Assembly: GCA_050506795.1 (NCBI GenBank)
Contig: JBJHCF010000053.1
Location: forward strand, 1-30,035
Length of the DNA: 30,035 nucleotides
Direction: 5' to 3'
From: Opitutia bacterium
Lineage (GTDB): Bacteria; Verrucomicrobiota; Verrucomicrobiia; Opitutales; T3Sed10-336
The notes under the pieces are model-generated. The model did not search any database and was not told the DNA's origin. It saw only the letters and a list, made by a program, of their open reading frames with translations. A program made the translations under genes and the position numbers. Within the stretch, counting starts at the first letter, position 1. Each line of letters opens with the position of its first letter. Below are positions 3,187-29,466 of this stretch, one piece after another.

Positions 3187-4206
3187 TCACAACTTCAGGT
3201 GCTCCCCAACCAGACGCTTCAATTGGTCCTGTCGGCCGGTATCGCGATAGGACGGGAGCGGGCGCAGCGCTTCGATTTGCCGCGAGATTTCCATCATCCC
3301 GACCGAGGTCAAAAGCATCGGAATCTCCTTTTCCCGCGCCAGGGCGATAACCGAGCTATCGGGCGATCCCTCGCCCGACAGGACGATTCCAGCCGCCCCG
3401 GTCTCCAGTGCCGCCACGATCAGGTCCGTGCGATCGACTTCAGTCACCACCAGTTTGTTTCGCGAATGAAACGTCGGGGACTTCCGGGCCGCGGCGGCCG
3501 GAACCACCCCCGAAAACACGCCGTCCACCACCGTCTCCGCACCCGGCCGGCCGGTGATCGGCTTCACGAACAATTCGTCTTCCAGGTAGGCCAGGGTCAA
3601 GGCGCAAACCGACCCTTCGCGCGGCACCACTCCCACCACCGGCAACCCCGCGGCCTCGATCAAGGGTAAGTGATGCTTCGTGAAATCCTCCGGATCCAAA
3701 ACCCGGTTCAGGATCAACCCTCCGAAAACATCCTCCCGGGAAAAATTACGCCCCGCCAGAAAATGCGCGTCGTCCACCATCACCTCGGCGTCTCCGGCAA
3801 GCACGACGTATAGCCGGGCCTGCAACCGCCGCGCCAGGGTCACCGGATCGAGTCCCAGCGACGCCCCGCTGGCCAAATCCGCTCCGGTCTCCACCAGCAG
3901 GAGTTCTTTTCCCGCACCCGCCGCGTCCGCCGCCGCAAGCAGTCGTTTCTCCAACGCCTCTCCGGGATGGGAAAAGCGAAGTTTGGAGTGGTCGAATCCC
4001 AAGGTGATCGAATCGGGATCCGTATCCAGTTCCAGAACACGCGCCATCAGCGACGCATCGGAATCCCACAAGCGTTTCTTTTTGTAATGGGGACGATCTC
4101 CCAGAGGTTTCATATAACCGGCCCCGCCCTTTTCGAGGGCATAACCCAACAAGAGGCTGGTTTTTCCGGAGTCGCGGTGCATGGAGGCAAATACAATACG
4201 TTGCAT
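3187..4206 (-). CDS. AAA_26 (BioD-like) + DRTGG domain protein (phosphotransacetylase N-terminal-like, no catalytic PTA domain)
   Basis: P-loop-like DSGKT, YMKPLG, LLVETG, LILNRV, then VTEVDRTDLIVAALE...GIVLSG. ATG 4206 has an AGAAAGG RBS upstream. Confidence 0.85.
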   Translation of the reverse strand: MQRIVFASMHRDSGKTSLLLGYALEKGGAGYMKPLGDRPHYKKKRLWDSDASLMARVLELDTDPDSITLGFDHSKLRFSHPGEALEKRLLAAADAAGAGKELLLVETGADLASGASLGLDPVTLARRLQARLYVVLAGDAEVMVDDAHFLAGRNFSREDVFGGLILNRVLDPEDFTKHHLPLIEAAGLPVVGVVPREGSVCALTLAYLEDELFVKPITGRPGAETVVDGVFSGVVPAAAARKSPTFHSRNKLVVTEVDRTDLIVAALETGAAGIVLSGEGSPDSSVIALAREKEIPMLLTSVGMMEISRQIEALRPLPSYRDTGRQDQLKRLVGEHLKL

Positions 4207-4219
4207 GACAGACCTTTCT

Positions 4220-6340: not shown

Positions 6341-8247
6341 CTCGATTGCGTCTCCCCAAAAGCCATCTTCATTTCATAAATTCCGGCTTCCTTGCGCTTT
6401 TGTATATCAAATCCCATGCTTTCAAAAAGGTGCAGCATCGCGCCGTTTTCCACCAGGACTTCCGCCGTAAAGCCGTACAGGCCCTGACGGCGTGCCAATT
6501 CGTAAAGGTACCTCAATAAGGCCGTGCCGACCCCCCGGTTCTGAAACTTGTCACTGACCACCAGAGCCACCTCGGCGAAGTGCGACTGCTCGTCAACGCC
6601 GTATTGGCCAACGCCCAAAACCGTTTCGTGGTCGGGTCCGCCTTCCGTGGCCAGAATCACCATGGAGCTGGTGTAATCAATCACCACAAACTCCTGCAAC
6701 CGCGCGTGCGGCATATCGGCGCGCACGGAAATAAAGCGCCGGTAAATGCTCTGGTCCGACAGAGAGTAAAAGAAGTCTTTAAGCAACGGCTCATCCTTGA
6801 TTTTCACCGGGCGAAGCAAAACTTCATCGTCGGTTTTGGGAAGTTTACGAAAGCGCTCCAACTCCTCCGGGTACTCCCCCCGTCGCCCCGGAATGAAAGC
6901 CTGGTCGGGGTAGATAAGATTCAATCGTTTGGCTGCTTCGATCAATCCCGGACGGTAGTCCGGATGCGCGATGGCGATCAGCTCCATCGCTCTCTCCCGG
7001 ATGTTTTTGCCGTGCAGGTAGGCAATACCGTATTCACTGACAACATAATGAACGTCACCGCGATGCAGAGTGACTCCCGTTCCTTCACTCAGTCGGGACA
7101 CAATACGGGAAATCGAGCCCTGCCGCGCGGTTGACGGAATGGCCAAAATTGTTTTTCCTCCCCTGGACATATGCGCTCCGCGCATGAAGTCGGTTTGCCC
7201 GCCGACCCCGGAAAAAAACGCCCCGCCCACCGATTCGGCGGTGGCCTGACCGGTAAGATCGATCTCCAGCGCGCTATTGATCGCCGTCATGTTGTCGTGT
7301 CCGGCAATGACCAAAGGATTATTGGTGTAATCAATCGGACGGAATTCGATCGCCGGGTTATCGTGGAGAAAAGCATACGTATCACTGTCTCCCATGCAAA
7401 ACGAGGCCACCGTCTTGCCTCGATGCAGGGTCTTACGGGTGTTATCGATCACTCCCGCCTTCATCAGCGACACCACTCCGGCCGTGAGGAGTTCCGTGTG
7501 CACCCCCAGGTGTTTTTTCCCGCCCAGGTTTTTAAGGACCGCATTGGGCACCCGGCCGTAACCCACCTGCAGGGTGTCTCCATCCTGAACCAGCCGGGCG
7601 ATGTGACGGCCGATACTTTCCGCCGCGCGCTCCTCAACCGGGTCGCGGTTATTGGGAAGCGCCATCACCGGTTCGTCGCACACCATCGCGCAATCGATTT
7701 GGTCCCAGTGGATAAAGGTTTCTCCCAGGGTGCGGGGCATGTTCGGGTTGATTTGCGCAATGACCAAGGTCGCGCTTTCCACCGCCGACTTCACGATATC
7801 CACGCTGATCCCCAAACTGACGTAGCCGTGAGCGTCCGGCGGCGAAACCTGAATCAGGGCCACGTCGATGGGAACGATGCGTTCGCGGAATAAACGGGGG
7901 ACATTCGAGAGGAACACAGGAGTGTAATCGGCCAGTCCCTCGTTGACCGCTGTCCGGGTGCCCCGGGCGAGGAAGAACGAATTGTGACGAAAGTTACTCT
8001 CGAAACGGGCCTCCGCATAGGGTGCCACCCCGAGTGTCCACACGTGGAAGATTTCCGCACCAAACACCGCTTTCGGGTGTGCTTCAACATAACGGATCAA
8101 CGCATCCACCAGGGCACGGGGCTCGCCGCAACCCGTGCCGACAAAAATCCGGTCCCCCCGGTGAAGACGGGTGAATATCACGTCCACCGAAGGAAACTTC
8201 TTCGGATGCTCACGCCGAAAGGCGTCCAAACGCTGACCGTCCTTCAT
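6337..8247 (-). CDS. Acetyl-CoA hydrolase/CoA-transferase fused to a C-terminal GNAT acetyltransferase
   Basis: DVALIQVSPPD, TLQVGYG, LGVHTE, INSALEIDLTGQ, GGQTDFMRGA, VVSEYGIAYL, then GNAT motifs RPVKIKDE...FFYSLS...YRRF, FQNRGVGTALL, NGAMLHLFESMGF. Stop overlaps the next start (ATGA, 6337-6340). Confidence 0.92.
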   Translation of the reverse strand: MKDGQRLDAFRREHPKKFPSVDVIFTRLHRGDRIFVGTGCGEPRALVDALIRYVEAHPKAVFGAEIFHVWTLGVAPYAEARFESNFRHNSFFLARGTRTAVNEGLADYTPVFLSNVPRLFRERIVPIDVALIQVSPPDAHGYVSLGISVDIVKSAVESATLVIAQINPNMPRTLGETFIHWDQIDCAMVCDEPVMALPNNRDPVEERAAESIGRHIARLVQDGDTLQVGYGRVPNAVLKNLGGKKHLGVHTELLTAGVVSLMKAGVIDNTRKTLHRGKTVASFCMGDSDTYAFLHDNPAIEFRPIDYTNNPLVIAGHDNMTAINSALEIDLTGQATAESVGGAFFSGVGGQTDFMRGAHMSRGGKTILAIPSTARQGSISRIVSRLSEGTGVTLHRGDVHYVVSEYGIAYLHGKNIRERAMELIAIAHPDYRPGLIEAAKRLNLIYPDQAFIPGRRGEYPEELERFRKLPKTDDEVLLRPVKIKDEPLLKDFFYSLSDQSIYRRFISVRADMPHARLQEFVVIDYTSSMVILATEGGPDHETVLGVGQYGVDEQSHFAEVALVVSDKFQNRGVGTALLRYLYELARRQGLYGFTAEVLVENGAMLHLFESMGFDIQKRKEAGIYEMKMAFGETQSR

Positions 8248-8391: not shown

Positions 8392-11300
8392 ATGAAAAGA
8401 CTTCGGCCCTTCGCTTTCCCGGCGGCTACCGCTTTCCCTTTTTTATTCGCCCTCCTGTCGGCGGCGCTGGGCGACCAGGTCCACGAACCCACCATAGACA
8501 ATCCGGGAGGTTACGTTCTGGCGTCCGACGCCGAAAACCCGAATTCGGGCTACAACCGCGACGCCGTCCAGCTCGGGTTCGTCCACGGGGCATCCTCACC
8601 CGGCTTCGACGGCGGCACCGTTCACTACCGCTATGTCTACCGGTTGCTCGACGAGGTCGGGGACCCCGTGCCGGTTTTGAACGACGAGGGCACGGTTCGT
8701 CCCGAACTGATTTTCGAAGACACGGTCGTTTTCGATTCTCTCGCCGCTATCGGACTGGAGCGAGACTTTCGTCTCCCCCCGGGCGTACAGCTCGATTCGC
8801 ACACTTTGTACCAGGCCCAGGTCACGATCTATCGCCGGGACGAGGGTTCCAGTACCTGGTTCCAGTCCGCCGAAAACGCCACACCGCCGCGCCGCCTGAT
8901 CCACTTCACGCACACCGATTCCGACGATGACGCGCTCAATGTCATCTCTTCTTTGGAGGGTCTTGCAATTCAGGACACCACCGTGGTTGCCACCGTCGAC
9001 GGGATGCGGCATTTTTCCGCCCGGGCCGATCTCACGCTTTTCCGCTGGGACGGTTTCGATGAAACCTTTGTCAGCAACGACTCCGTAACGGTCCATTTCG
9101 ACCTGGAATTGCGGCGCCTCGACAACGGCAATCCGGTGCCTCTTGAGGAATCGCGCATTACCCGGACTTTCGACGTGGACAGCTTTCAGGCCGGCAGCAG
9201 CCCGCGCGAACCCAAGGAGCAAAATTTCGACAATGTCGAACTGGAGTTCCTGCCCGCGGGCCAACTCGACTCCGTCGCCACCCAGTACCGCCTGCATGTG
9301 GCGGTGTCCCATGTCGACCTGGCCGGCGACGCCTCCACACCGGGCAACGATCGGCTCACGAGCGGCGCACGACTCCTCCACTTCAACGGTTCACTGCTCT
9401 TCGGGAACATCCGGGGGCAAATCAACGGACTGCAAAGCACCCCGGTCTCCCTCGGCGCCACCGCCGGCTGGATCGCCTCGGAACTGGAGCTCGAGGAGGC
9501 GGGCGGCGCCATCGAGGGGGTCGAGGACATCGTGTTCGGCGACGGCTCCTTTATTCCCGTCAACCTGCTCGCCAACGGCGACGCCGAGTACACCGGCGGC
9601 GACCCGGTGGCCGCCATTCCCGGCGAGGGTTACGAACCGCGCGTCCACGGCGGCCACCGCTTTTCCCACAACCCGATCGCACTGACCACCGGCGGAGCCT
9701 CGGCGACCCAGATCACCTTGGTACTCCCCGCCGGGGCAGGAATTCTGCCCGGACCTCTGCCCCAGGGAGAGTTTCTGGTGGGCTTTCCCTTTGTGCCCTT
9801 CAGCGATGTCGAACTCGACCAGAACATGCTGCCAATCGCTTCCACCCTCAGCCTCGAACTGGACAATCGGAAGTTCTACGTCGAATCCTTTCCCGTCTAC
9901 CTGCTCCTGGAGGAATTCGAATGGGCGATCAGCGCCGAGGAAATTATTCTGCATCCGACCGGCGTCGAGTTCATGCAGGAAGCCCGTTTCGCCTACCTGG
10001 AGGATCCGGACGCCGGGCTTGCCAATCCCGATGCCGCCCAACGTATGTCCAACGACATGTATTTTCGTCACGTCGACGGCATCAACGGGAACGCCACCCT
10101 GCGTCGAGGCGACAACGGCGAAGCGCTGCTCAATTGCGAGCTCAGCATTGGCCCCGGCCACCACAACGCGCACTTTCCCCTGTACAGCCATGTCGCCTGG
10201 GATGTCGGCGGCCAGCTTCACATCGAAGACACCCGCATCGACCCCGCCGCCAGCTACCTGGAAGGCGTCCAGGGCGCCCTGCAGATCTACCAGGCGAGCT
10301 GTCCGGACGACGATTGCGGCGGCGCTTCGCCCCTCCTGCGCTACCGGGCCATCGTCCCCGATAACAATCTTGCTTTATTCACCCCCGAAGGCGGTCTCCA
10401 CGCCACCGGCGACACCATGACCGAAGGGATTTATGACCCCCACCTCGAATGGGGCATGATCCCTTACAATGTCACCACCCATGAAACCGACGCCTTCATG
10501 CGGGCGAATTTCTACACCCCGGGTAACGTCCTGGCTGGATCGGACTTTCCCGGCGACCCGGACAAGGCTCCGGGAACCCTCCTGCTTTCCGGTGTGAATC
10601 CGGACGATCTCACCGAAATGGAACGCCCGGGCGAAACCGCCTATAAAGCGGGTCTCGGCGACTACCCGGGTCTCAATTTCCGGGTCGATGGGAATCAGGG
10701 CGAAAGCAAACTCGGCGGCGAATGGTTCAGCTTCGCTCTGAGTGACCGCTCCAAGTACTACGCGCGCTGGTCCGGCGTCTCCGGCATCCACGAAGCCGCG
10801 TCCTTCGACGAAACCCGGGAAATCTACGGCTACCCGTTCGCCTTCTCCAATTTCGGACTGTCCTTCCTTGCGGGCGTCAACCACGACTCCCGCGTCAACG
10901 GCGAGGTCACCGTCCCCTACCCGTCCGATTTCACCCAGGAATTCGAAAACATGACCGTCACCTGCCTGGGCGCTCTCGACGAGGCGCAACCACCGGAGGA
11001 CGATCCGGACAAAACCCTCGTCTACTGGGGCGCGGTGTTCAGCACCTACGCCATCCAGTTCGAGCCGGACCCCGACACCCCCTGCGCCCCGGAAGCCGGT
11101 TTTCTCACCCTCGGCGTCGGCACCGAACCGGGTTCACTCGCCACCCGTCTCTACGGCACCCTCGGTTTCTTCCCCGACGGTGAACTCATCGCTCCGTCCG
11201 AACACCCGGCAACCGTCGCCTCCCGACTCATCGCCCCGCAATCCCTGGAAGTCGCCGGTCCCGGTGCCGAAACTTACCGCGTCACCCCGGTGGCGGATCT

Positions 11301-13947
11301 TTACTTCAATTCCCACCACCTGCGCGACCAGCAAACCACCCCCGAACCCGCCCCCTTCCTCTCCCTCGCCGCGGGTATGAACGTGCCGTTCTTCGAGCAG
11401 ATTCAGGCTCAGCTTCACCTGTCCCCCCTGCCGGGAGCCGGCGAGGATGACGATATCTTCGAACGCCTTTATTATGTCATGGGAGGCTGGCCGGATACCG
11501 ACGCCGGCTGGACCGACGGCCAGGGCCGGCACTTTTTCTCGTACACGGACTTCGACGGCGAGAACCGCGGCTACCCGGACGGCGAAACACTGGAATCCTA
11601 CCGCGATCCCACCCGTAATGACGCGTCCAATACGCAATACCTGGCCCGCGCCCAAAAACAGTGGCTCGGAGTCATCCCCTTCGATTACCCGCTCAAGTGG
11701 ACCCCGGTCAATCGCGCGTTTCGCTCCCCGCAAAACGTGGAAAACGATCTCCTTGTCCTGCAGGTCGAACACCAGGTGCTCTACCTTGATCCCAACAACG
11801 CGGAGATCTCGTTCGGCGCGCAGTACGACGGGCTGCCGCAGATCAATGTCGCGAACATGCTCTACGACGCGGTGGACGAACAACTCGGCGCCGCCAATTC
11901 CCTCGTTAATTCCGCCGGGCAGGCGGTCTTCGATCGCCTCCTCGGGGGCGTCGACGGGTTCGCCCGAATTCTCGACGACAAGGTGCAGATGATTTTCCGG
12001 GAGCTGTTCGACGAGGGAATCGATCCGCTGCTGGACGAACTCGCTGCCGAAATCAATGCCCACCTGGCTTCCTTCCCCGACGATCCCTCCATCGACATCG
12101 ATCCCAACGAATTGATCGCGGAACACGCTCCGTGGCTCGACGCCTGGGACGATCACATCGATCAACTCGAAACCGAACTGGCCGGTCTGCACCAGCAGAT
12201 CCGCGAGGAAATCGCAGCCATCGCCGGCGGCGCCCAGGACGTGACCGCCGCGCCGGTCAACCTCATCGGGCAAATCGACGACGAACTCGCCCGGGTGCAG
12301 GATTCGATTCGCGCCGTGCTCGCCATGATGCCGGATTCCGTGGCGGTCGACCCCGACAAAATCGCGGACCTCCTTCCCGACCTGCCCGACGGCCAGGCCG
12401 GCCGCATTCTCGAAATCCTGGTGGGAGATCTCATCAGCAAGGAACTCCCGAACCTCGCCGCGAGCCTCATTGAGGAACCGCTGGAGGAATTGATGGAGCG
12501 CGCCGAACCCACCCTGGCCCAAATCGCGCATTTCCTCGACCGTATCGACGACCGCATCGGAGATGTCCGCGACAGCCTGCAGGAACAGGGTCAAGGCATT
12601 GACAGTTTCGCCGGCGAAATCCGCGAACGGATCGCCGGCGCCCAACAGGAAATCGAAAACATCGTCGACACCGTATTCGAGGAAGCCTTCGCGCGGCTGC
12701 AATCCCTGCCGCGCAACGACTACCGGTTCGACGAAATCGTCTACGATCCGGACATCGACCTGCCGGGCGAGGACGACGTCAACGCGATCAAGGAGGAACT
12801 AAAAACCTTCCTGCGCGAAACCTTTGAGGACGTCTTCTTCGAATCTGACATCGTCCGCCAGTACCACCGCATCGTCCGCCAGCGGATCTACGACATCTAC
12901 CTGGAAAAACAGGAAGCTGTGGACACCGTCTTCGCCCAGGTCAACGACATGGTGAAGGAGATTATCCGCGACACCGTGGGCTCCGCCGAAGACGCGATCA
13001 ACGAAGTGGTGGGCGACCTCTCCGAAAAAATCGGCGCCGGCGAAATCACCGGTCACGCCCACATCCAGGGCGAGGCCCTCAGGCTGCTGCGCCTCGACGG
13101 TCATTTCCAATTCCAGGTGCCCGACGAAATGGAACTGAGGGCATACCTGCAAATCAAGCAACTGCGCGCCGACGGCACGGACGGATGTATTCCGGCCAAC
13201 GGCGACAACGACCGCGCGGTGGAAGCCACCATCGGCGCCATCGATATTCCGCTGGAATGGCTGGCGCCCGACCTGCGGGCCGACGTGGAAACCCGCTTCT
13301 CCTTCGACACCGGTGGCGAATGGCCGGTACCGCGCGGCCTGGCCGGTTCCTTTGCGCTAACCGGGGGCACCATCGGTTTCGAGTCCTTCGAGATCAATCA
13401 ACTCGCCGCCGCCATGGCATTCAGCGCGAGCGGGGGCGAGGTCAACGAAGCCTATCTCAGCGCCGCCGTCGGACTCGACTTCAACGATTACGCCGCGTCA
13501 GGCGGTGTCTTCTTTGGCCGCGCGTGCAGCCTCCACCCGATCCAGATCTGGGATCCGGACGTGGCCGCCGTCCTCAACGATCCCCCGTTCACCGGAGTGT
13601 ATGTGTACGGCGAAGTCTGGATGCCGGTTTCCGAAGCCCTCCTTGGCATTCCCGCCACCTGCATGTTCCGGGTATCCGCCGGCGTGGGCGCGGGCATGTT
13701 CTACTTTGTTGAAGGCCCCACCTACGGCGGCAAACTTTTCGCCGGACTGTCGGGCGACATCCTCTGCCTGGTCAGCGTCGCCGGCGAACTCACCATGATC
13801 GGCGTCAAACAAGGCGGCGGCGCGGTCAATCTCACCGGACTCGGCTTCGTCGAAGGCAAAATCGGCGTCGGCCGCTTCGGCAAAACCATCAGTCGCGACG
13901 TCGTCGCCAGCTACATCGACGGCAGTTGGGATGTGGACCTGCAATGA
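8392..13947 (+). CDS. Giant secreted hypothetical protein (1851 aa): two N-terminal repeats, long beta-rich region, ~400-aa acidic helical region, Gly-rich beta C-terminus
   Basis: Uninterrupted 5.5-kb ORF with strong GC3 bias and a signal peptide (MKRLRPF...SAALG/DQ). No catalytic motif recognised. Confidence 0.9.
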   Translation: MKRLRPFAFPAATAFPFLFALLSAALGDQVHEPTIDNPGGYVLASDAENPNSGYNRDAVQLGFVHGASSPGFDGGTVHYRYVYRLLDEVGDPVPVLNDEGTVRPELIFEDTVVFDSLAAIGLERDFRLPPGVQLDSHTLYQAQVTIYRRDEGSSTWFQSAENATPPRRLIHFTHTDSDDDALNVISSLEGLAIQDTTVVATVDGMRHFSARADLTLFRWDGFDETFVSNDSVTVHFDLELRRLDNGNPVPLEESRITRTFDVDSFQAGSSPREPKEQNFDNVELEFLPAGQLDSVATQYRLHVAVSHVDLAGDASTPGNDRLTSGARLLHFNGSLLFGNIRGQINGLQSTPVSLGATAGWIASELELEEAGGAIEGVEDIVFGDGSFIPVNLLANGDAEYTGGDPVAAIPGEGYEPRVHGGHRFSHNPIALTTGGASATQITLVLPAGAGILPGPLPQGEFLVGFPFVPFSDVELDQNMLPIASTLSLELDNRKFYVESFPVYLLLEEFEWAISAEEIILHPTGVEFMQEARFAYLEDPDAGLANPDAAQRMSNDMYFRHVDGINGNATLRRGDNGEALLNCELSIGPGHHNAHFPLYSHVAWDVGGQLHIEDTRIDPAASYLEGVQGALQIYQASCPDDDCGGASPLLRYRAIVPDNNLALFTPEGGLHATGDTMTEGIYDPHLEWGMIPYNVTTHETDAFMRANFYTPGNVLAGSDFPGDPDKAPGTLLLSGVNPDDLTEMERPGETAYKAGLGDYPGLNFRVDGNQGESKLGGEWFSFALSDRSKYYARWSGVSGIHEAASFDETREIYGYPFAFSNFGLSFLAGVNHDSRVNGEVTVPYPSDFTQEFENMTVTCLGALDEAQPPEDDPDKTLVYWGAVFSTYAIQFEPDPDTPCAPEAGFLTLGVGTEPGSLATRLYGTLGFFPDGELIAPSEHPATVASRLIAPQSLEVAGPGAETYRVTPVADLYFNSHHLRDQQTTPEPAPFLSLAAGMNVPFFEQIQAQLHLSPLPGAGEDDDIFERLYYVMGGWPDTDAGWTDGQGRHFFSYTDFDGENRGYPDGETLESYRDPTRNDASNTQYLARAQKQWLGVIPFDYPLKWTPVNRAFRSPQNVENDLLVLQVEHQVLYLDPNNAEISFGAQYDGLPQINVANMLYDAVDEQLGAANSLVNSAGQAVFDRLLGGVDGFARILDDKVQMIFRELFDEGIDPLLDELAAEINAHLASFPDDPSIDIDPNELIAEHAPWLDAWDDHIDQLETELAGLHQQIREEIAAIAGGAQDVTAAPVNLIGQIDDELARVQDSIRAVLAMMPDSVAVDPDKIADLLPDLPDGQAGRILEILVGDLISKELPNLAASLIEEPLEELMERAEPTLAQIAHFLDRIDDRIGDVRDSLQEQGQGIDSFAGEIRERIAGAQQEIENIVDTVFEEAFARLQSLPRNDYRFDEIVYDPDIDLPGEDDVNAIKEELKTFLRETFEDVFFESDIVRQYHRIVRQRIYDIYLEKQEAVDTVFAQVNDMVKEIIRDTVGSAEDAINEVVGDLSEKIGAGEITGHAHIQGEALRLLRLDGHFQFQVPDEMELRAYLQIKQLRADGTDGCIPANGDNDRAVEATIGAIDIPLEWLAPDLRADVETRFSFDTGGEWPVPRGLAGSFALTGGTIGFESFEINQLAAAMAFSASGGEVNEAYLSAAVGLDFNDYAASGGVFFGRACSLHPIQIWDPDVAAVLNDPPFTGVYVYGEVWMPVSEALLGIPATCMFRVSAGVGAGMFYFVEGPTYGGKLFAGLSGDILCLVSVAGELTMIGVKQGGGAVNLTGLGFVEGKIGVGRFGKTISRDVVASYIDGSWDVDLQ

Positions 13948-16900
13948 GACCATCGTCGAGATTTACCTCGGAAATTCCAGCAACCGTTTTCGCAATGACA
14001 CCTATGATAAAGCCGTTTCATAAAAGCCTGGCTTCGATTTTTCCTCTCAGCCTGGCCCTGGCCGTTTCTCCCTGGCTCACCGCCAATGAAATCGACGAAC
14101 CGATGGTGATGACCGTCGGCACAGTTCACAACGACACGCCCAGCGGCGACACCTGGACCTACCTGACCTGGGAGGAAACGCTGGACGGCGCGCTCGACGA
14201 AGGACCGGTCGCCGTGTTCCGAAAATCCGGCGAAGCCGAGGCTCCGGCTCCCTTCGACCGCGTCGCCGTCGTCTCCTGGCTGAGCGATCCCCTCACCATC
14301 CAGTCCATGCTCAACCGGGCGCCGGAATTGAACGACGATCTCGCCCGTCTGGAATCGAATATCGATGAGATCTTCGGCGAAATGCTCGCCGCCACCGATG
14401 ACCTGCCTTCCGACGGCGACCCGGCGGAGGTTTCGCTGGCCCATAAAGTCGCGGCCCTTCTGAACGCCGCCGCGGCCGATGCCGAACAACGCGAAACCGT
14501 GCGCTGGCTGGCTCGCGTCCACCCGGTGCTCAACCTTTGCCTCGGACGCGCCTTCGCCGAAGTCGTGGCGGACAGCGGCCCGGTCACCTACGAGGTGCGT
14601 CACTGGGATCCGGCCGAAGGCCAAAGCCTGGAGGTCATCGGACGCATCACCCTCGACCCCGGCGCCGGCATCGTCAGGCTCCCGGCGGCCGGATACGCGG
14701 TCGAGGTGCCGCCCGACGGTCCCCGCGGGCACCTGTCGGTGCGTCTGCGCTGGGCGACGCCGGACGACCTTCGCGTGCGGGCGCCATTACATTTCGGATA
14801 CAACGTCTACCGCATGACGGAGGACTATGCCCGCGATGTCGGCTACGACGAACGCCCGCCCCATCCCGACGCCCTTTCCGACTACGCCGGCGATCCCACC
14901 TTCACCGAGGTGGTGCGCGCCAACCGGGCTCCTGTCGTGACCGACCGGATACTTTCCGAAAATGAAGCCCTCGACCTCTCGATCCAGCCCGGCGACCAGG
15001 AACCGTTTTTCTTTTTCGGCGACGACAACGACCGCTTCAACCACGGCGTTCCCTTCGAGGACGGCGACGGCTTTTATTATTTCATCACCGCCCGCGATAT
15101 CCTCGGGCGCGACGGCTACGCCTCCGACGGCACCCACGTGGTGGTCTGTTCACAAATGCCCCCCAATCCTCCCGGACGGGTGTGGGTGGAAAACCACTAC
15201 CGGTACGAGGACGGCGACCCGCAGGGACAACAGCATCTCGCGGTCCACTGGGAGCCGTCGAGCAGCGACACCGCCGAACAATACTACGTTTACCGCTTCA
15301 CCAGCGTAAACGAAATGCAGATCGCCACCCAGCAGGACCACCGCACGGAGGACTTCCGCATCGCCGGTCCGATCGAAGCCAAGGGTGACGGCGTCATGAC
15401 CTACATCGACGACGGTTCCGGCAACGACTGGCTGCGATATCCGGCGGGCCCCGCCGACTACGGCGTGCCCTACCTCTACACCGTGCGCGCGGAAGAAATG
15501 AGCGCCTGCGGCGGCAACCTTTCCGGACACGGCGCCCCCGCCTGGGGTGTGCTGCGCCAGCGCGAAGGGCCGGAAGCCGTCGACGCGACCCTGATCCCCA
15601 ACTCGCGCGCCATCACGATTCAACCCCCGCAATCGATCGTGGATGTTGCCGCGGACATGGAAGTCTTCGAAAGCCGTGTGTTCCAAGTGGCGGTCCAACG
15701 CCTCAACCCCGCCATCGAGTGGGCCGAGATCCAGATCGTAGCCCCGATGCGCGCGCCTTATCCCCATAGAAACCTGGGACGACAGGTATTCGGTGGCGAC
15801 GATGAGGTTTCCGCCAATTTCATCATGTGGGAGTGGCACTTGAATCAACCCCCGACCATTCTGGTTACAGCCGGCGGATCGGGCCTGACTCCGGCCCAGT
15901 CCTACGTTTACCTCCCCGACCTCAACGCAAAACCCGACACAGGAACCGGCGGCAACATCGGTCGCATGGTCTTTATCGCCGATGTCGAAACCGGTCCCGG
16001 CCTCGACGGCGTGGACCCGAATTTACACGTCTCCACCGATCCCGTAACCGGCGAAATCTTCTGCCTTGACCTGGAGGTCATTATCGAAGCCGGTTCGCCG
16101 GCCGCCGAATGGCGAATCTACCGGCGCATCGGTCAGGGAGACCTCGAACTTGTTCACCAGGAGATGCGCGAACCGGGCGCGGACGGCACGCTGGACTGGC
16201 AGGACTGCGCCCTGCCGGCCCGCGGCGGCATCGCCTGTTATTTCGTTCAGGCCCTCGACGACGAAGGCAACCCCGGTCCGATGACACGCGCCGGGTGCGT
16301 ACAACTCGAACCCACCCACAGCCTGCCGACACCCATGCTCTACCCCGTGCGCTCCCTCGGGACCGAGGACGACTCCCTGGCGACCGTTTCCTGGTTCAGT
16401 TCGCCCGAAGGAGTGGACCGGTTCGAGATCCTGATCGCCGCCGAAGGCGGCACGCCCCCGGAACACATCAGCGACGAACTGTCGGCCCGGCGCAATGACA
16501 CACCCATAACGCTTCCCGGTTTCGAGGATCAGAACTTCCACGTTTACGAAACCGCCCGCGTCGGTGTCGGCCTGCACGGCGACGGACCCGAATTCTCGGT
16601 CCAGGCGAGCTTTCTGTCGGGAACCGATCACACCATCCTGATCCGCGCCGTCGGTCAGGGACCCTTCACCGGACGTCCCGCAAACGACGGCCGCCCGGCC
16701 ATCGCCGAACGTCAGCGCGGCGCCCTCAGCAACAGCGAAACCTTCCAATGGACGGCCCCCGAAGACGAACCCGGCCCGCTGGTTCCCTGGCCGGCGCGTT
16801 CCCTTCCGCCGCTGGCGGACAACGGCGCCCGGTTGATCGCCGACATGGTGACCCCCCAGACCGGCGCCGGGGTACGCATCGGCGAATTCCGTTTTGTTAC

Positions 16901-17447
16901 CTTCGAGGAGAATCCGCAGCCTGTATCCATGCCGGGAACACACCCCTACCCTCTGCCATTTGAATACGATCCCAATGACGCCGTTTTTTCCGTCAACGGG
17001 CTGGAAAGCGTGTCGGACGACGCCGACACCGACAAATCCCTGCTCCCCGCCGTCCTCTACCGCTACCAGGTTCCCAACAGCGTCTTTCCCGACGTGGGAG
17101 GCAACCTGGTCCAGGTCTCTCCGCTGATCCGGGAGATCGCATTCCAGGTGCGGCCGGACGACGCCAAGGAGCGTTCGGACTTCGAGCACGCCTACGCCGC
17201 GTTTCCGCCGGGTGGGCACAAGGACTACAACATCCTGCAGGACCCCTTCCTCGCGGCCAAGATGAAAGAAGGGGCCAACGCCCTGATGAGAAAAACGCAC
17301 GACCTTTTCATCCTCGACAATCAACCGGTCGTATTCGGCGCCAAGTACCGCTACCTGCTGGTGCGTTTTAACGACGACGGCGAGATCGACCGCGTCTTTC
17401 CCGTACCCGCCCTCGATCTCGGCGGCCAGGGCGGAAACGGCCTCTGA
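13944..17447 (+). CDS. Large secreted protein with multiple fibronectin-III-like modules (~1167 aa; start could be 13995 or 14004)
   Basis: ATG 13944 overlaps the previous stop (ATGA). Signal peptide ...LALAVSPWLTA/NE. Repeated Fn3-like signatures LRW...GYNVYR, YYFITARD, VHW...YYVYR, YLYTVRA, WRIYRR, YFVQALD. Confidence 0.88.
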   Translation: MRPSSRFTSEIPATVFAMTPMIKPFHKSLASIFPLSLALAVSPWLTANEIDEPMVMTVGTVHNDTPSGDTWTYLTWEETLDGALDEGPVAVFRKSGEAEAPAPFDRVAVVSWLSDPLTIQSMLNRAPELNDDLARLESNIDEIFGEMLAATDDLPSDGDPAEVSLAHKVAALLNAAAADAEQRETVRWLARVHPVLNLCLGRAFAEVVADSGPVTYEVRHWDPAEGQSLEVIGRITLDPGAGIVRLPAAGYAVEVPPDGPRGHLSVRLRWATPDDLRVRAPLHFGYNVYRMTEDYARDVGYDERPPHPDALSDYAGDPTFTEVVRANRAPVVTDRILSENEALDLSIQPGDQEPFFFFGDDNDRFNHGVPFEDGDGFYYFITARDILGRDGYASDGTHVVVCSQMPPNPPGRVWVENHYRYEDGDPQGQQHLAVHWEPSSSDTAEQYYVYRFTSVNEMQIATQQDHRTEDFRIAGPIEAKGDGVMTYIDDGSGNDWLRYPAGPADYGVPYLYTVRAEEMSACGGNLSGHGAPAWGVLRQREGPEAVDATLIPNSRAITIQPPQSIVDVAADMEVFESRVFQVAVQRLNPAIEWAEIQIVAPMRAPYPHRNLGRQVFGGDDEVSANFIMWEWHLNQPPTILVTAGGSGLTPAQSYVYLPDLNAKPDTGTGGNIGRMVFIADVETGPGLDGVDPNLHVSTDPVTGEIFCLDLEVIIEAGSPAAEWRIYRRIGQGDLELVHQEMREPGADGTLDWQDCALPARGGIACYFVQALDDEGNPGPMTRAGCVQLEPTHSLPTPMLYPVRSLGTEDDSLATVSWFSSPEGVDRFEILIAAEGGTPPEHISDELSARRNDTPITLPGFEDQNFHVYETARVGVGLHGDGPEFSVQASFLSGTDHTILIRAVGQGPFTGRPANDGRPAIAERQRGALSNSETFQWTAPEDEPGPLVPWPARSLPPLADNGARLIADMVTPQTGAGVRIGEFRFVTFEENPQPVSMPGTHPYPLPFEYDPNDAVFSVNGLESVSDDADTDKSLLPAVLYRYQVPNSVFPDVGGNLVQVSPLIREIAFQVRPDDAKERSDFEHAYAAFPPGGHKDYNILQDPFLAAKMKEGANALMRKTHDLFILDNQPVVFGAKYRYLLVRFNDDGEIDRVFPVPALDLGGQGGNGL

Positions 17448-17476
17448 ACGGAAGAACGAGCAAACCCAACGCAACC

Positions 17477-20400
17477 ATGAAGCGGACTATTTTATTTTTA
17501 TCCCTGCTGACCGCCGGACTCGGCACCGTCGTCAACGCCCAGGACACCCGGCCGGCGGCTGGCAAAGCCTACGTATCCGATCGGGAAATACACCTCCATA
17601 TCACTCCGGCGGAATCGGGCCTGGCGGAACCGGTGTTAATCGATCGCGCCACCGGCCTCTACCGTTTCGCGTGGCGGGATGCGCAAGGCGTGCTGCAATG
17701 GGGCGAAACCCGTTCCACCGGACTGCCCGCCGTCGACAGCGCCAGCGCCGGACTTTTCCTGCCAAAATCTGGTCCGGGTTTTGTGGTCGTTGAACGGGAC
17801 GCCAACCGCCTGGCTTTTGTCACGCCCTCGGCCGACCCCGCCGTCGCCAACCCCGCGCTGGTCCCGTCGCCGGCCCCCGGACCCGCACGGGTCGCGGCCG
17901 GGAGATTTCACCACCGCAATGAAACGGAGCTGCATGAAATCGCCCTGCTCACCGCCTACAACACCTCCAGCCAGGCTCACCGGCTGGATTTCCTTAGCCT
18001 CGACAATGCCACATTTCCAACCCCGACCCTGCATCCGCTGGACGGAGAAGGCGTCACCATGGATCATCCGGGAAGCTTCGAAACCCTCCGGCACCCGTCG
18101 ATCGACACCGACATTCTCCTTCTGAGCGGCGACGCTTCCATCGCCGGGCCCCTGACCGGGTATTACCTGGACGGCTCCGCTATCGATATCGCGGTCCAGT
18201 ACATCGGGTCCGCCGAGACCCGTTTCGAAGTCGCCGAGCTTTTTGCCGCCCCGGACAACCCGTCCCTGTTGATCTGGCACCGGGGCGAACCGGTCCTGCA
18301 CCACGCGGTTCTCGTGGAGGGAAACGGCATCGACGGCGCGCCGCTGGGATTAAAATTCCTAGAACCGGAATGTGTGCTGCCGTTTAATATCGGTTCCCTG
18401 GTCCTCCTGGAGGACGGCGCCGATCCGGCGCGAATCCTGGTGGTGTCCGACGACGGAAGACTGGCGGTCGTGTTGCCGATCCACGACTCCTGCCCCGGCG
18501 ATCCCCTGGAAACGCTGCAGGCCGGGGAACAGGGCGTGTTCCTCGGCGCCCTCCCCGACGGGAAAGGCGGCTTCACTCTATTCACCGGGGTCCGGGGCGG
18601 CGCCAGCCGCGGCTACATGGATTTTCAACGCGAGGGCGACGGTTCCTACACGTTGAGAAGCGAGGGCTTACTGCCCGAACTCGACCATCGGCAGCGTTTC
18701 CCAAACCTGATCGGATTCGATCAGGATCCCTTTCTCGTTCCGGAGGCTTCGGCCTTCGCGTACTACCGTTACCAGGACTGGACGCTCCAGGGAACCTTTG
18801 CCGGCAACGCGGTGGAAGCGGTGGGGCAGGCGTTCCTGGGCGAGACCGAAGGGCTCGGCCAGGCTTCGACTTCGGCGGTCGGCTCGGTCGCCCCCGGTGT
18901 CGGATTCCTTCTGCCCAACCAGGTCGCCGCCGATATCTCGGTTGCCGCCCTGGCCCCTGTCGGATCCCACACTCCGGATTCGGTCTCGGTCTCCCCGGCG
19001 CCCGGCACCTACAACCGCAGCATCCGGCTCGATTTCTCCACCGGGGTTCCCGACGGGACGGTTTACTTCCGGCTGGATTCTTCGGGACCGTGGAACGCTT
19101 ACGATCCCGGCGCCCGCCCGGCCCTCTTTCAGGACACCACGGTGCAGTACTACGCCCGCTCCGAATCCGACCCCAACCGCATCACCGCGGTCCGGACCGC
19201 GATCTACACCTTCTCGCAACCCTTTCACCGTTTCGATTCCAACCGCGACGGCGTGCCCGACTTTGTCCGCGACCACTTCGGTCTCGATCCGTTTGGGCCA
19301 GTGGACAGCAGCGGCAACGGAATCACTGACCTCGAAGCCATTTTGCGTGGCCTCGACCCGCTTGATCCCGACGCCGAGGCCACCGGCCGTCCGATGGACT
19401 TCGGACTTGTTTTCGACGCCGAGGTGTATCCGCATTTTCCGGACCCGAAGGAAGCGCCCGGAACCGCCTTCCTCGACGCGGAGTCCGGAGTGAGCATCGA
19501 AGCCCACAAACTCACCTCCAACCGCGCCGGCCGTGGCGTTATCGGCAGCGCCACCGGCGATCCCTCCGGAGCCCTCCTGGAAAGACTGGATCCGGCGGGA
19601 GGACGTCTTTTCTTCACCGCCTCGACACCCTCGGTCTTTCCCACAAATCCCGTTGTCGGCGAATTCCATGGGCATGAACTCCTCGGACTGTTTGCCGCCC
19701 CGGACCTGACTCTGCCGGTCATCGAATACTCACCGTCCGGCCAGTCCCTGGCGGAAGAAGTGGACAACTGGCGCAACGCCGCCCTGAAGGCCCTCGAGGG
19801 ACACGAACGCGTCGTCGACCACTGGAACCTGACTCCGGAGAGCACCTTTGTGCTGGCGCTGATGGAGCACTCGCTGTCCGCTTTGCTCGCCGATCGGAAT
19901 GGAGAAAACCCAGCCCCGCACACCCTGGTCCCCCACCGGCGCGGCGACAACGACCGCGCCCGCTTCACCCGGGAAAAAATTGAATCCCTCACCCGGCCCC
20001 TGCCCGGAGCCCGCGACCTGAACGGACCGCTCTATGACCTGATCGCCGGCCGGGACGCCATCATCGACACCGTGGAAAACGGCCAGGGCGTCCAGGCCCA
20101 AGCCGTGCGAGCGTTGATTTACGACGTATTTCAAACCCGCACCCTGCACCACGATCCGCAACAAGCCGACCTGCCTCGCCCGCTGGACGCCTTTCGCGGG
20201 TTCCTGGAAAACGGCGGTGAATTGCCCGGCGCCTACCAGGATCTTATTGAATTGAGTGCCCCGGAAATCGAGGACGCGTATCTCGGCGCGCTCGCCATCG
20301 CCGAAGGTGCTTTCCCGGAACGAAGATTATCCATTCGCGTCGTTGAGATCGTGCCGGACACCTTCGACGCCCCCTGCCGCAACGTCATCGATCGCGCCCG

Positions 20401-21016
20401 GGGAGAAACCCTGCAACTGCTGAACGCGCGTGGCGAACCCTACCGCTTCCCCTCCGCGCTGCGCCTGCCGGAAGGCACCCGGCTGGAAATCAGCGGTTTC
20501 CCCTTGGAAATCGCCACCGGCGAGTGCCAGGGTGAGCCGTTCGAAGTGCTGGCGGTGCATTTGATCTTTCTGCCCTCCCCGATTGCGGCGGACGGCGACG
20601 GCAACCTCCTCCCCGATGAATGGGAACAGGCCTTTTTCGGAACGACCGGGCTGGATCCTTTTGCCGACAGCAGCGGCAACGGGTACTCGAACCTCCAGCA
20701 CTACCTGCGGGGCTCGGATCCCCGTTCCTCCTCGCCCATTTCCGGAGTCGAGCCGGCCGACCTTTCTCCACCAACCGTGGAGATCCGCACGACCGACAAC
20801 GGCGAATTCGAAATCGAATGGGCTTACCCCTACCCCTACATCCAACACATCGGGTTCCTGGTGGAGGAAAGTCACGACATGAACGATTGGCAGCCGCTGC
20901 CACCGATCAGTCAAAGCCAACCCGCCGCCGACCGACGCCGGGCCGTTCTGCCCGGACCGCAAGGCGACGGAACAGACGCCCCCTTCTTTCGGCTGCGGAT
21001 GGAAATCGATCATTGA
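17477..21016 (+). CDS. Large secreted protein (1179 aa) with a chitobiase/beta-hexosaminidase-C (Fn3-associated)-like domain, DxxxDG-type Ca-binding repeats and a terminal module
   Basis: Signal peptide MKRTILFLSLLTAGLGTVVNA/QD; SPAPGTY...TVYFRLD...W..Y...TTVQYYA; DSNRDGVPD...GLDP, DSSGNGITD...GLDP, DGDGNLLPDEWEQAFFG...DSSGNGYSNLQHYLRGSDP; ends PFFRLRMEIDH. Confidence 0.88.
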   Translation: MKRTILFLSLLTAGLGTVVNAQDTRPAAGKAYVSDREIHLHITPAESGLAEPVLIDRATGLYRFAWRDAQGVLQWGETRSTGLPAVDSASAGLFLPKSGPGFVVVERDANRLAFVTPSADPAVANPALVPSPAPGPARVAAGRFHHRNETELHEIALLTAYNTSSQAHRLDFLSLDNATFPTPTLHPLDGEGVTMDHPGSFETLRHPSIDTDILLLSGDASIAGPLTGYYLDGSAIDIAVQYIGSAETRFEVAELFAAPDNPSLLIWHRGEPVLHHAVLVEGNGIDGAPLGLKFLEPECVLPFNIGSLVLLEDGADPARILVVSDDGRLAVVLPIHDSCPGDPLETLQAGEQGVFLGALPDGKGGFTLFTGVRGGASRGYMDFQREGDGSYTLRSEGLLPELDHRQRFPNLIGFDQDPFLVPEASAFAYYRYQDWTLQGTFAGNAVEAVGQAFLGETEGLGQASTSAVGSVAPGVGFLLPNQVAADISVAALAPVGSHTPDSVSVSPAPGTYNRSIRLDFSTGVPDGTVYFRLDSSGPWNAYDPGARPALFQDTTVQYYARSESDPNRITAVRTAIYTFSQPFHRFDSNRDGVPDFVRDHFGLDPFGPVDSSGNGITDLEAILRGLDPLDPDAEATGRPMDFGLVFDAEVYPHFPDPKEAPGTAFLDAESGVSIEAHKLTSNRAGRGVIGSATGDPSGALLERLDPAGGRLFFTASTPSVFPTNPVVGEFHGHELLGLFAAPDLTLPVIEYSPSGQSLAEEVDNWRNAALKALEGHERVVDHWNLTPESTFVLALMEHSLSALLADRNGENPAPHTLVPHRRGDNDRARFTREKIESLTRPLPGARDLNGPLYDLIAGRDAIIDTVENGQGVQAQAVRALIYDVFQTRTLHHDPQQADLPRPLDAFRGFLENGGELPGAYQDLIELSAPEIEDAYLGALAIAEGAFPERRLSIRVVEIVPDTFDAPCRNVIDRARGETLQLLNARGEPYRFPSALRLPEGTRLEISGFPLEIATGECQGEPFEVLAVHLIFLPSPIAADGDGNLLPDEWEQAFFGTTGLDPFADSSGNGYSNLQHYLRGSDPRSSSPISGVEPADLSPPTVEIRTTDNGEFEIEWAYPYPYIQHIGFLVEESHDMNDWQPLPPISQSQPAADRRRAVLPGPQGDGTDAPFFRLRMEIDH

Positions 21017-21035: not shown

Positions 21036-21065
21036 TTGACACCTCGCGGTTCCGGAGCGTAAACA
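21036..21065 (+). promoter_or_regulatory. Possible sigma70 promoter for the acyltransferase gene
   Basis: Perfect TTGACA at 21036-21041, but only a weak -10 (TAAACA at 18-bp spacing). Confidence 0.25.
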
Positions 21066-21119
21066 GAAACGCTTCGTTTTTCGATTTCCACGGGCGGTCC
21101 GTGGCAACACAGATTCACT

Positions 21120-22132: not shown

Positions 22133-22165
22133 TGAAGTGTAACCGAGGTCCTTGGGTTGTTACCC
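22133..22165 (+). repeat. Solo copy of an IS481-type terminal sequence
   Basis: tgaagtgtaaccgaggtccttg (22133-22154) matches 29629-29650 at 21/22 positions. It is followed by ggttgttaccc, similar to the ggttgtaccc terminus near 29675-29684. Confidence 0.75.
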
Positions 22166-22253
22166 TTTCATCTTACCTGTAGAATTACGGTCCCACAGGA
22201 CCGGGAGATCGGCGAAGTTGACCGGGCTAGCCATTCGGGTATTCTCCGACCTT

Positions 22254-29112: not shown

Positions 29113-29466
29113 AACAGGTACAGGTAGCGGGTTTAGGCTGGTTTCGTTCCTGAATAAAAAGCACAAGACAAACGAACCAACCGTTGATATTTTTAATATA
29201 ACGAAGACGTGTATTCTTGTAATTGAGGCGATGGAGGCTTTTTTCGAACAAAGCAATGATATGACAAAAACGTAAAACTCCACCAGTGCATTGACAGTCT
29301 AACAATAGAGCAATGGATCGAATCGCTAATTACGATACTCCACGCGAACGCCTTAAAGGTTCGCCGAAATTCGCCTGCTCATGATCGTCATAACCAGGCT
29401 GAGGGGCATGGCACGGCGGCCGACACGTTCGAACCGGCACGGACCCGAATGCACTGGAGGTCAACA

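Follow-up and report, generated by a model that had tools for sequence, protein, structure and literature searches.

Three genes for very large proteins lie side by side at one locus

What do three adjacent genes build when each encodes a very large protein that fits no catalogued family? We addressed this question in a window of 30,035 nucleotides, the whole stretch of contig JBJHCF010000053.1 analyzed here, from an Opitutia bacterium (GenBank assembly GCA_050506795.1), in which the genes that we call A, B, and C lie on the same strand (Table 1). A preliminary description of this DNA had reported three co-oriented genes joined by an ATGA overlap and a 29-base gap, and the sequence confirmed the open reading frames and both junctions (overlap at 13944-13947, gap at 17448-17476). 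The length of ~1167 aa given for B holds for the frame opened by the ATG at 13944, but the true start is more likely the ATG at 13995 or 14004, giving ~1147 aa, because, counted from the ATG at 13944, the hydrophobic stretch of B starts only at residue 29 (hydropathy), its aligned homologues start near position 14004, and a -4 overlap occurs in just 4/71 homologous A-B junctions (67/71 are within 50 bases). Since B likely starts downstream of 13944, the overlap is probably no evidence for translational coupling of A and B here. At B-C junctions, a -4 overlap is found in 18/58. The Sec-type signal peptide attributed to each protein, assessed by eye and by hydropathy, agrees with the peaks of A (1.81) and B (1.61), but C lacks any 19-residue window above 1.6. 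Promoter and terminator scans of the locus gave results at chance level.

Table 1. Features of the three-gene locus (positions in the window; aa, residues of the protein concerned)
Feature	Position	Strand	Description and basis
Gene A	8392-13947	+	1851 aa; signal-peptide-like N-terminus; core subunit (ORF call, hydropathy)
A tandem repeats (aa 36-180, 183-335)	8497-9396	+	Two repeats of ~145 aa; HHalign 98.7% between repeats
A beta-rich region (aa 336-1084)	9397-11643	+	aa 655-1084 modelled at high confidence; no fold could be given to the region, which lies outside the fold-search match rows
A first amphipathic-sheet strands (aa 1085-1145)	11644-11826	+	Before the insert (model, alignment, covariation L1123-I1552)
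A acidic amphipathic helical insert (aa 1153-1546)	11848-13029	+	Predicted (model, alignment)
A 16 long amphipathic strands (aa 1549-1850)	13036-13944	+	Predicted (model, alignment); conserved cysteines; terminal [WFY]-x-hydrophobic-x-[FYL] strand
Gene B	13944-17447	+	1167 aa from ATG 13944; probably ~1147 aa
B conserved helical insert	14289-14543	+	Within first beta domain (model helices 96-180, alignment)
Gene C	17477-21016	+	1179 aa (ORF call)
C core (aa 641-1034)	19397-20578	+	No catalogued match; invariant Glu, Trp, Arg
C C-terminal tail	20765-21013	+	~80 aa; common to 112 ORFs of the genome
Terminator-like hairpin	21053-21076	+	After C; top rank among 15 sites, shuffles 13.4 +/- 4.1; weak evidence

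Can a known family account for these proteins? None reached its cut-off for A, B, or C in Pfam, NCBIfam, PADLOC, or PHROGs, and PDB sequence searches returned solely generic helical or titin matches, or none. Weak matches to Baculo_PEP_C, Apolipoprotein, and tape-measure families all fell within the helical insert of A and were set aside as generic. DUF6603 (PF20248) had no match when 16 members were scanned directly; in a second scan, none of the control genomes reached the cut-off. The RHS/YD-repeat shell with a hypervariable tip, as in Tc/RHS three-gene toxin complexes, was not found with Pfam, NCBIfam, or homologue domains. The earlier statement that the genes cannot be assigned to any named system thus held in the libraries searched. 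The term "non-enzymatic" is not established for the C core, with its invariant Glu, Trp, and Arg residues.

A, B, and C are an obligate three-gene unit

Are the three genes a unit or chance neighbors? Among 401 Verrucomicrobiota genomes sampled, A was found in 20 and B in exactly these 20; C was present in 20/20 of them, and none of the three was found in the remaining 381. After a contig end in one genome (G362) was checked, a partial cassette was seen in 0/401 genomes. A and B were adjacent in 70/73 scorable loci and B and C in 57/57; homologues were thus found together, the opposite of the separate occurrence that would have refuted the earlier proposal. The trees of A and B had 34/41 supported splits in common, with 5/41 in conflict, and in Roseibacillus (two genomes tested, one lineage) unlinked A and B-C copies had the same nearest cassettes. 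Spearman p-values from the tree comparison were set aside, the pairs being dependent on one another. A protein search with A at E<=0.001 gave 53 proteins, query included. These data indicate that A, B, and C are an obligate unit, almost always inherited together.

The distribution of the cassette is patchy: ~5% of the Verrucomicrobiota genomes sampled have it, some in multiple copies (5 at most), and the genome studied here carries a second copy on another contig (C20). Cultured carriers are Haloferula, Luteolibacter marinus, Roseibacillus persicicus, and Pontiella. No relatives outside Verrucomicrobiota were found in weak searches of plasmids and viral contigs, and a length-restricted search with the N-terminal half of B gave 3 matches, the single named one being verrucomicrobial. 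The genome matches considered were the best 80 of 166, 120 of 145, and 150 of 1435. Rather than a housekeeping system, the cassette would be a surface module that is optional and exchangeable. Neighbor clustering revealed no conserved fourth component or immunity-like partner (the commonest neighbor family was in 7/80 loci). The acyl-CoA genes at 3187-8247 (minus strand) and the acyltransferase at 21120 are absent from the recurring neighbor families and were rejected as cassette members.

The C-terminal half of A is predicted to be a long amphipathic sheet interrupted by helices

The predicted model of A agrees with the beta/helical/beta architecture described for it. The two N-terminal tandem repeats are probably Ig-like, and no internal repeats were found beyond them (1/28 segment pairs significant); according to domain scans, homologues have this end extended or swapped for propeller or CARDB-like domains. 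Short amphipathic strands are numerous in aa 655-1084 of the model and run on into a longer sheet. The C-terminal half is predicted to form a single amphipathic sheet of ~19-20 strands that is continuous across a helical insert and ends in a beta-signal-like strand. The strands on the two sides of the insert (aa 1085-1145 and 1549-1850) are together the most conserved part of A, and the insert itself spans 309-464 aa across 59 homologues, with a hydrophobic period of 98-99 degrees.

In homologue alignments of 19 strands, one face is <1% charged, with hydrophobic runs averaging 5.5 positions; these positions were selected for low polarity, so the percentage describes the runs and is no independent test. 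The opposite face is 36% D/E/K/R, conserved, and Gly/Tyr-rich, and the alignment and covariation suggest that loop 1712-1732 packs on it, the loop covarying with the polar-face residues S1690 and K1781 (effective depth 116). Longer loops and conserved cysteines line both edges of the sheet in the model and alignment. The terminal-strand pattern, which was set up from what we take to be the beta-signal, was present in 44/59 A homologues versus 2/1092 long ORFs. This sheet-plus-insert layout, the main feature of A, is new here and was missed in the preliminary description; no bacterial match was found in the searches made.

B is a chain of Fn3-like domains, and C carries a tail shared across the genome

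The claim that B is an Fn3 chain was borne out by the predicted model and by fold matches, which agree on a chain of Fn3/Ig-like domains (single-domain Fn3 Z about 11, rmsd 2.3-2.5 Å). The sole complex prediction, between A(1085-1851) and the N-terminal domain of B (the initial 195 residues in its alignment), scored 0.00 in two runs and was weighed neither way. C consists of an FG-GAP propeller-like N-terminus, an Ig-like domain, two TSP3-like acidic repeats, the core, and the tail; a domain scan detected FG-GAP and TSP3_bac repeats in its homologues, as expected from the propeller-like, calcium-binding protein first described. Bacterial integrin-alpha-like adhesins have the same FG-GAP, TSP3_bac, and Fn3 modules as B and C. 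Unlike these adhesins, B and C are fixed partners of A, B has a helical insert, and the core of C matches nothing catalogued.

A profile of the C tail matched 112 ORFs of this genome and 0 reversed tails; within the window, the tail is also found on a xylanase (22152-24497) and a LamG protein (24634-29283). It was present on 48/51 C homologues and on 0/79 A and 0/59 B homologues; since the profile was seeded from C tails, the independent part of this result is its absence from A and B. C is therefore, as claimed, the only one of the three with this terminal module. In two Prosthecobacter-like genomes, the tail is swapped for a different ~400-aa module that recurs at 12 and 10 places in the respective genomes. 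Its presence on 112 ORFs and this swap support the view, drawn from sequence comparison, that the tail is a generic, exchangeable address, and it is a candidate export or anchoring signal. The proposal that the third protein supplies the export or anchoring signal of the complex survives in part: the tail is generic and swappable, but dependence of A on C for export is doubtful, because A has a beta-signal-like strand of its own and may insert in the outer membrane independently.

How does this tail compare with known sorting domains? The occurrence of a similar ~80-aa terminal module on >100 unrelated proteins here, C included, resembles the type IX secretion (T9SS) CTD (Por_Secre_tail) and, by description only, the CTD-like domain of Akkermansia Amuc0953 in the accessible part of its report (PMC13524802). 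The C tail differs in having no Por_Secre_tail match in Pfam or NCBIfam; SprA, PorP, and GldN were not found in this 97.8% complete genome, and no control genome reached the cut-off either.

A surface attachment apparatus is the tentatively favored explanation

What, then, do A, B, and C build? We tentatively favor a cell-surface attachment apparatus, inherited as one unit, in which A is the outer-membrane base bearing B and C. All three proteins would be exported by Sec, and A would be put into the outer membrane by the BAM machinery via its terminal strand, lying there through its predicted ~19-20-strand sheet. The polar face would be turned inward to the lumen, loop 1712-1732 would fold back against that face, and the helical insert may be an arm that binds lipid or a partner. 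B would serve as an adaptor or a jointed stalk of Fn3 domains, C would leave the cell, likely via the shared tail, and give a calcium-stiffened propeller head, and the variable N-terminus of A together with the C propeller would pick the target surface.

Joint inheritance (co-occurrence, adjacency, and A/B tree agreement), the modular N-terminus of A, and the swappable tail of C are consistent with such an apparatus, as is the T9SS-like CTD reported on a surface-bound Akkermansia sulfatase in the accessible part of that study (PMC13524802); the A/B tree splits in conflict count against it. Outer-membrane barrels fill the fold-search lists of A (Z up to 14.1), and OccD/OpdC, MOMP, MtrB, FimD, and BtuB resemble the A model (Z 13-14) in their up-down meander, amphipathic strands of 11-14 residues, and terminal beta-signal-like strand. 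The model also has their one hydrophobic face of membrane-spanning length opposite a charged face. In porins a loop is folded inward, and the covariation of loop 1712-1732 with the polar face follows that fashion. However, no barrel fits A well (rmsd 7-12 Å), and A differs from barrels in its ~1080 N-terminal-domain residues, its two obligate partners, and the helical insert in its wall; we know of no precedent for a ~380-residue insert within a barrel wall. Typical barrels have short periplasmic turns, whereas A has longer loops and cysteines on both sheet edges. Barrel-closure covariation gave nothing above noise at an effective depth of only 116, and in the test for aromatic girdles the difference between strand ends (0.24) and middles (0.15) did not reach significance (permutation p=0.13).

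Could the sheet instead be open? Porins and the ApoB100 beta-belt fit the A model to the same degree, and neither more than loosely (Z about 14, rmsd 8-11 Å); the ApoB100 fragment (Z 13.9, rmsd 8.3 Å, 257 residues) is level with porins for best Z, and Foldseek placed ApoB100, MTP, vitellogenin, and lipovitellin at ranks 1-7 (E 3e-5 to 1e-2), which counts against a barrel. A might then be a secreted, apoB-like open amphipathic sheet with a helical insert, wrapped around a droplet of lipid, a vesicle, or a tube of membrane, in a system that harvests, carries, or shapes extracellular lipid, with B and C as a tether and the C tail exporting the complex; we consider this conceivable, though rather unlikely. 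Like the A model, these four proteins have an unbroken amphipathic sheet in which amphipathic helices are inserted between strands. For ApoB100, the accessible part of the structural report describes a continuous amphipathic sheet with a mean strand of 11 residues and mostly helical inserts (PMC11839476), as in the predicted layout of A. The insert profile of A matches apolipoproteins A-I, E, and A-IV, but designed bundles, spike HR1, and chemoreceptors match it equally well or better. Two helix references are the 11-residue lipid-surface repeat and the 103-degree heptad, and the period of the insert is nearer the former. Against an open belt, the same Foldseek matches had TM-scores <=0.10 and rmsd >35 Å, and no Vitellogenin_N Pfam family or PDB sequence was among the listed matches for A. 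A has no sequence match to this group of proteins, ~20 strands against the 120 of ApoB, and a bacterial operon setting; the likeness is an analogy only. Its Gly/Tyr-rich polar face with a packed loop suits a lumen more than a solvent-facing belt. That A is a bacterial counterpart of apolipoprotein B, by convergence or deep ancestry, an amphipathic beta-belt that assembles or captures membrane tubes or particles of lipid in the extracellular space while B and C tether and export it via an undescribed verrucomicrobial CTD pathway, likewise seems rather unlikely.

A membrane-attack or delivery device, in which helices shield the hydrophobic face of soluble A, the C propeller finds a target cell, and the sheet inserts in the target membrane, appears improbable. 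It would draw on the amphipathic sheet and helices, the patchy, multicopy distribution, and the similar layout of the TANFOR polymorphic-toxin cassettes of Bacteroidota, in which a giant secreted protein lies beside Fn3 and CTD proteins (PMC7073777). The likeness extends to a giant, putatively Sec-exported protein, N-terminal repeats of ~145 aa, and Fn3- and CTD-bearing neighbors. Yet TANFOR homology failed the domain test, TIGR02542 having no match at the locus even at E 1-10. Neither a variable toxin tip, an immunity gene, nor a T9SS gene was found here, family scans detected no TANFOR, RHS, or toxin domain in the cassette, and no relative was found in the weak search of viral contigs. The C-terminus of A is not polymorphic and is among its best conserved parts, and no neighbor is conserved.

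Might the three proteins serve one task without binding each other, as co-regulated exported proteins whose operon is held by shared transfer alone? Linkage alone gives operon neighbors shared trees, and B and C are largely common adhesin modules. This also strikes us as improbable: no sampled genome has a partial set, A and B-C copies of matching subtype, though unlinked, are both kept in the two Roseibacillus genomes tested (one lineage), and A and B lack the tail found on 112 other ORFs.

Least probable of all, and very unlikely in our view, is a periplasmic bridge-like lipid-transfer protein, with an AsmA/TamB-like groove in A moving lipid between membranes and B and C as accessories: the short strands of aa 655-1084 run into the long sheet, and TamB-like proteins too have a beta-signal-like terminal strand, but the TamB profile matched another gene (C4) rather than A (6/14 controls positive), A had no AsmA match in Pfam, no groove protein was among its listed fold matches (which barely cover aa 655-1084), and the cassette is in just 20/401 genomes and has adhesin-like variable ends. 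In other structural searches, the viral fold library gave nothing with a TM above about 0.1, the ESM Atlas gave three clusters for whole A at 0.81-0.82 with no Pfam family in common, and it gave no named match of use for aa 640-1150.

What the cassette would mean for Verrucomicrobiota

On these data, A, B, and C likely assemble into a single complex at the cell surface, in which A, the largest subunit, is predicted to turn the hydrophobic side of its long sheet to lipid. Judged against sequence libraries, fold libraries of PDB and viral proteins, and the open-access literature, the cassette is new in kind; it is set apart from the TANFOR cassettes of Bacteroidota by sequence profile, not by fold, and if a fold-level link to them were true, it would be a variant of the TANFOR system. 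It is an obligate, 4,200-residue, three-protein cassette, yet all three proteins fall outside the catalogued families. As a membrane barrel, A would represent a new barrel class with a 380-residue helical arm in its wall; as an open belt, A would be a parallel in bacteria to lipoprotein scaffolds. Because the cassette joins one tailed and two tail-less mutually dependent proteins, with the tail naturally swapped in one lineage, it would offer a direct test of the verrucomicrobial C-terminal tail.

Conservation and obligate association of the A-B-C cassette

Is the order of the three genes conserved across Verrucomicrobiota? Scanning GTDB genomes identified 166 relatives; among the best 80 of these 166, which were retrieved, the record titles named Verrucomicrobiota only (Opitutales, Verrucomicrobiales, Limisphaerales, Chthoniobacter, and Kiritimatiellia). 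Adjacency of A and B was scored in 73 loci, excluding 7 with fewer than 600 bases past A. B was located directly 3' of A in 70/73, behind an inserted 2,124-aa gene in one, and was missing in two. C lay directly 3' of B in 57/57 scorable loci, 14 being left out because the sequence past B was too short. In an even draw of 401 Verrucomicrobiota genomes, including our own, profiles of the A C terminus and of B matched the same 20 genomes. The C core profile matched 19 of these, and in the 20th, C was present but cut by a contig end. A, B, and C were not found in the other 381/401 genomes (two to five candidates scored per genome). Up to five cassette copies per genome occurred in this sample, and the B profile matched 510 clusters at E<=1e-30 (50%-identity representatives). 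Closer to our organism, A was present in 10/11 genomes of the same family and in 1/49 others of the order. The conclusion that the cassette is an obligate unit is solid.

The same genome carries a second cassette in identical order on another contig, C20, with 22 to 26% identity to the first. Its A is shorter (ORF of 1,614 aa) and its alignment to the window A starts at residue 299, so that most of both N-terminal repeats is missing or diverged.

Both loci with A alone belong to Roseibacillus, so that the exception represents one lineage; B-C is found elsewhere in those genomes, together with a second, intact A-B-C. The nearest cassettes of the unlinked A, B, and C were all L103, L108, L112, and L115, and the intact copy had different ones; the partners were thus retained after linkage broke. 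In 50 complete triads, the A and B trees had 34/41 supported splits in common (5 conflicting) and the B and C trees had 30/34 (3 conflicting), an agreement that linkage alone can explain.

No fourth gene was conserved, the commonest neighbor family being found in 7/80 loci. An exported-looking protein of 220 to 250 aa flanks the cassette in 7/80 loci (after C in L038, L058, L059, L060, and L062; before A in L079 and L084) and is possibly an occasional fourth part. The 2,124-aa exported protein between A and B ends in a tail resembling that of C. Three cassette loci (L059, L078, and L099) come from records that submitters titled "Akkermansia muciniphila," and one such record has sizes identical to those of the Akkermansiaceae MAG at L060.

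Features of the window and of related loci
Feature	Coordinates	Strand	Remarks
ORFs of 120 and 283 aa	73-435; 458-1309	-	Exported-looking; unmatched in Pfam and NCBIfam
Acetyl-CoA hydrolase/transferase-GNAT fusion, ADP-forming acyl-CoA ligase-like protein, DRTGG-domain protein	3187-8247	-	Divergently oriented relative to gene A; neighborhood with cassette not conserved
A	8392-13947	+	1,851 aa
B	13944-17447	+	Start probably 13995 or 14004
C	17477-21016	+	
GH10 xylanase	22152-24497		Carries C-type tail
LamG/Ig protein	24634-29283		Carries C-type tail
Second cassette	G000:C20:39962-51365 (L016:6963-18366)		Same genome
2,124-aa protein	L092:5829-12203		Pontiellaceae genome; Chlam_PMP-like and Flg_new_2 repeats
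~400-aa module	L094:18842-20041		Also at L110
Split A frame	L133:5523-5622		Genome G349

Gene calls and protein B

ORF lengths, the ATGA overlap, and the 29-base gap all agreed with the first description of the three genes. The overlap is present in the sequence, but the true start of B is probably 47 to 56 bases past the A stop. The later start is favored by a hydrophobic stretch from residue 29 of the longer frame (hydropathy), by homologue N termini that align nearby, and by junction spacing in homologues, where a 4-base overlap occurs in 4/71 and the genes lie within 50 bases in 67/71. Signal peptides were assessed by eye and hydropathy alone; a lipobox-like pattern was present in 3/63 A, 2/60 B, and 2/48 C. 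None of the three proteins scored above the cutoff in Pfam, NCBIfam, PADLOC, or PHROGs, in agreement with the preliminary description, which could assign no named system.

The B model (mean pLDDT 73.7, pTM 0.42, 19 sequences) predicts beta domains strung in a chain, the first of which contains a helical insert (model residues 96 to 180). Single domains matched Fn3 in fold searches (Z about 11, rmsd 2.3 to 2.5 Å), and whole-chain matches were generic Ig/Fn3 chains; coverage of the last ~230 residues was minimal. The model is consistent with the Fn3 chain originally proposed.

Protein C ends in an exchangeable tail

C homologues contain N-terminal FG-GAP repeats, a CHB_HEX_C_1-like domain, and TSP3_bac repeats. 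Among the 11 C proteins scanned, TSP3_bac exceeded the cutoff in 4 and FG-GAP in 0. The calcium binding proposed earlier is inferred from DxDxDG-type motifs. Glu, Trp, and Arg residues are invariant in the C core (641-1034), which had no sequence match in the PDB.

An iterated profile seeded on the last ~80 residues of C matched the tails of 112 ORFs in this genome but none of the reversed tails; the module is uncatalogued. Among homologue tails it matched C in 48/51, A in 0/79, and B in 0/59; within the cassette, the module is confined to the third protein, as had been noticed. Two of the three tail-less C proteins, from Prosthecobacter-like loci, have Ig domains and another module of ~400 aa in its place; the third has masked bases. 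The ~400-aa module had 12 matches in one of these genomes and 10 in the other (query gene and orthologue counted), many in very large proteins of up to 8,230 aa, and is possibly a second lineage-specific sorting domain. Since another many-copy module replaces the tail in two loci, the end of protein C acts as an interchangeable address. In Akkermansia, a sulfatase bound to the cell surface is reported to have a CTD-like domain, and a comparable export system has been suggested (PMC13524802). The T9SS genes SprA, PorP, and GldN were not found in this genome by a search that had no positive control.

Protein A: a possible membrane barrel or lipid-binding belt

A begins with two ~145-aa repeats (HHalign 98.7%); homologues have propeller domains added or a CARDB-like region instead. 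In the model of residues 655 to 1851 (59 sequences, pLDDT 78.8, pTM 0.61), strands at 1085-1145 and sixteen at 1549-1850 form one sheet, aligned in fold searches to consecutive barrel strands. The covariation L1123-I1552 spans the intervening helical insert (z 8.0; 234 sequences, effective 116). One sheet face is near charge-free and the other 36% charged, the hydrophobic runs having been picked for low polarity. The insert (309 to 464 residues) is acidic and amphipathic, with a period of 98 to 99 degrees, and is less conserved than the sheet (0.37 versus 0.60). From the model, we predict an amphipathic sheet with a helical insert with fair confidence.

Six cysteines within the sheet region, together with two located upstream, are conserved in 92 to 100% of homologues; the window A lacks the last pair. 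At L133, A is in two frames that meet where the first sheet strands join the insert, by sequencing error, pseudogene formation, or a real split; two congeneric genomes have an unbroken 1,868-aa frame.

Porins matched the A model with Z of 14.1 at best (rmsd 9.5 to 11 Å), a tie with the ApoB100 beta-belt fragment (Z 13.9, 8.3 Å); the fit of larger barrels was slightly closer (MtrB, 7.5 Å over 298 residues). Foldseek ranks 1 to 7 were ApoB100, MTP, vitellogenin, and lipovitellin, with TM of 0.10 or less. These searches barely tested residues 655 to 1084. The tie and the poor fits suggest a large curved amphipathic sheet in the model rather than a standard closed barrel. A membrane barrel is favored by the terminal strand (aromatic-x-hydrophobic-x-[FYL] is the C-terminal end in 44/59 homologues) and by loop 1712-1732, which covaries with polar-face S1690 and K1781. 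It is disfavored by the lack of a covariation signal for closure (234 sequences, effective 116), a nonsignificant aromatic-girdle test (p=0.13), and loops and cysteines on both sheet edges. The alternative that A is a secreted apoB-like lipid scaffold draws on the insert's helix period and on the amphipathic sheet-plus-helical-insert layout described for ApoB100 (PMC11839476); we consider it rather unlikely.

Proposed arrangement of the three proteins

In its predicted working, the cassette comes closest to an adhesin complex anchored in the outer membrane or to a lipoprotein scaffold; the tests applied place it in neither group. The nearest gene layout is that of the TANFOR polymorphic-toxin cassettes of Bacteroidota (PMC7073777); this cassette lacks a TANFOR domain, a toxin tip, and an immunity gene. 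TamB, DUF6603, and RHS profiles did not match it, and searches of the open-access literature yielded no paper on it.

The initial observation was borne out, and its interpretation in part: the three genes are a conserved, obligate unit, and their products may form a single surface complex. That A, B, and C are co-regulated but unbound proteins is improbable, and the same applies to a membrane-attack or delivery device; A as a periplasmic lipid bridge is least probable of all. The best reading, a tentative one, is an outer-membrane base (A), a stalk (B), and a propeller head (C). All three proteins would cross the inner membrane by Sec, A would enter the outer membrane and serve as the base, and C would exit through the tail pathway. 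C and the stalk B would then present a propeller head, and the surface bound may be chosen by the variable A N terminus and the C propeller.
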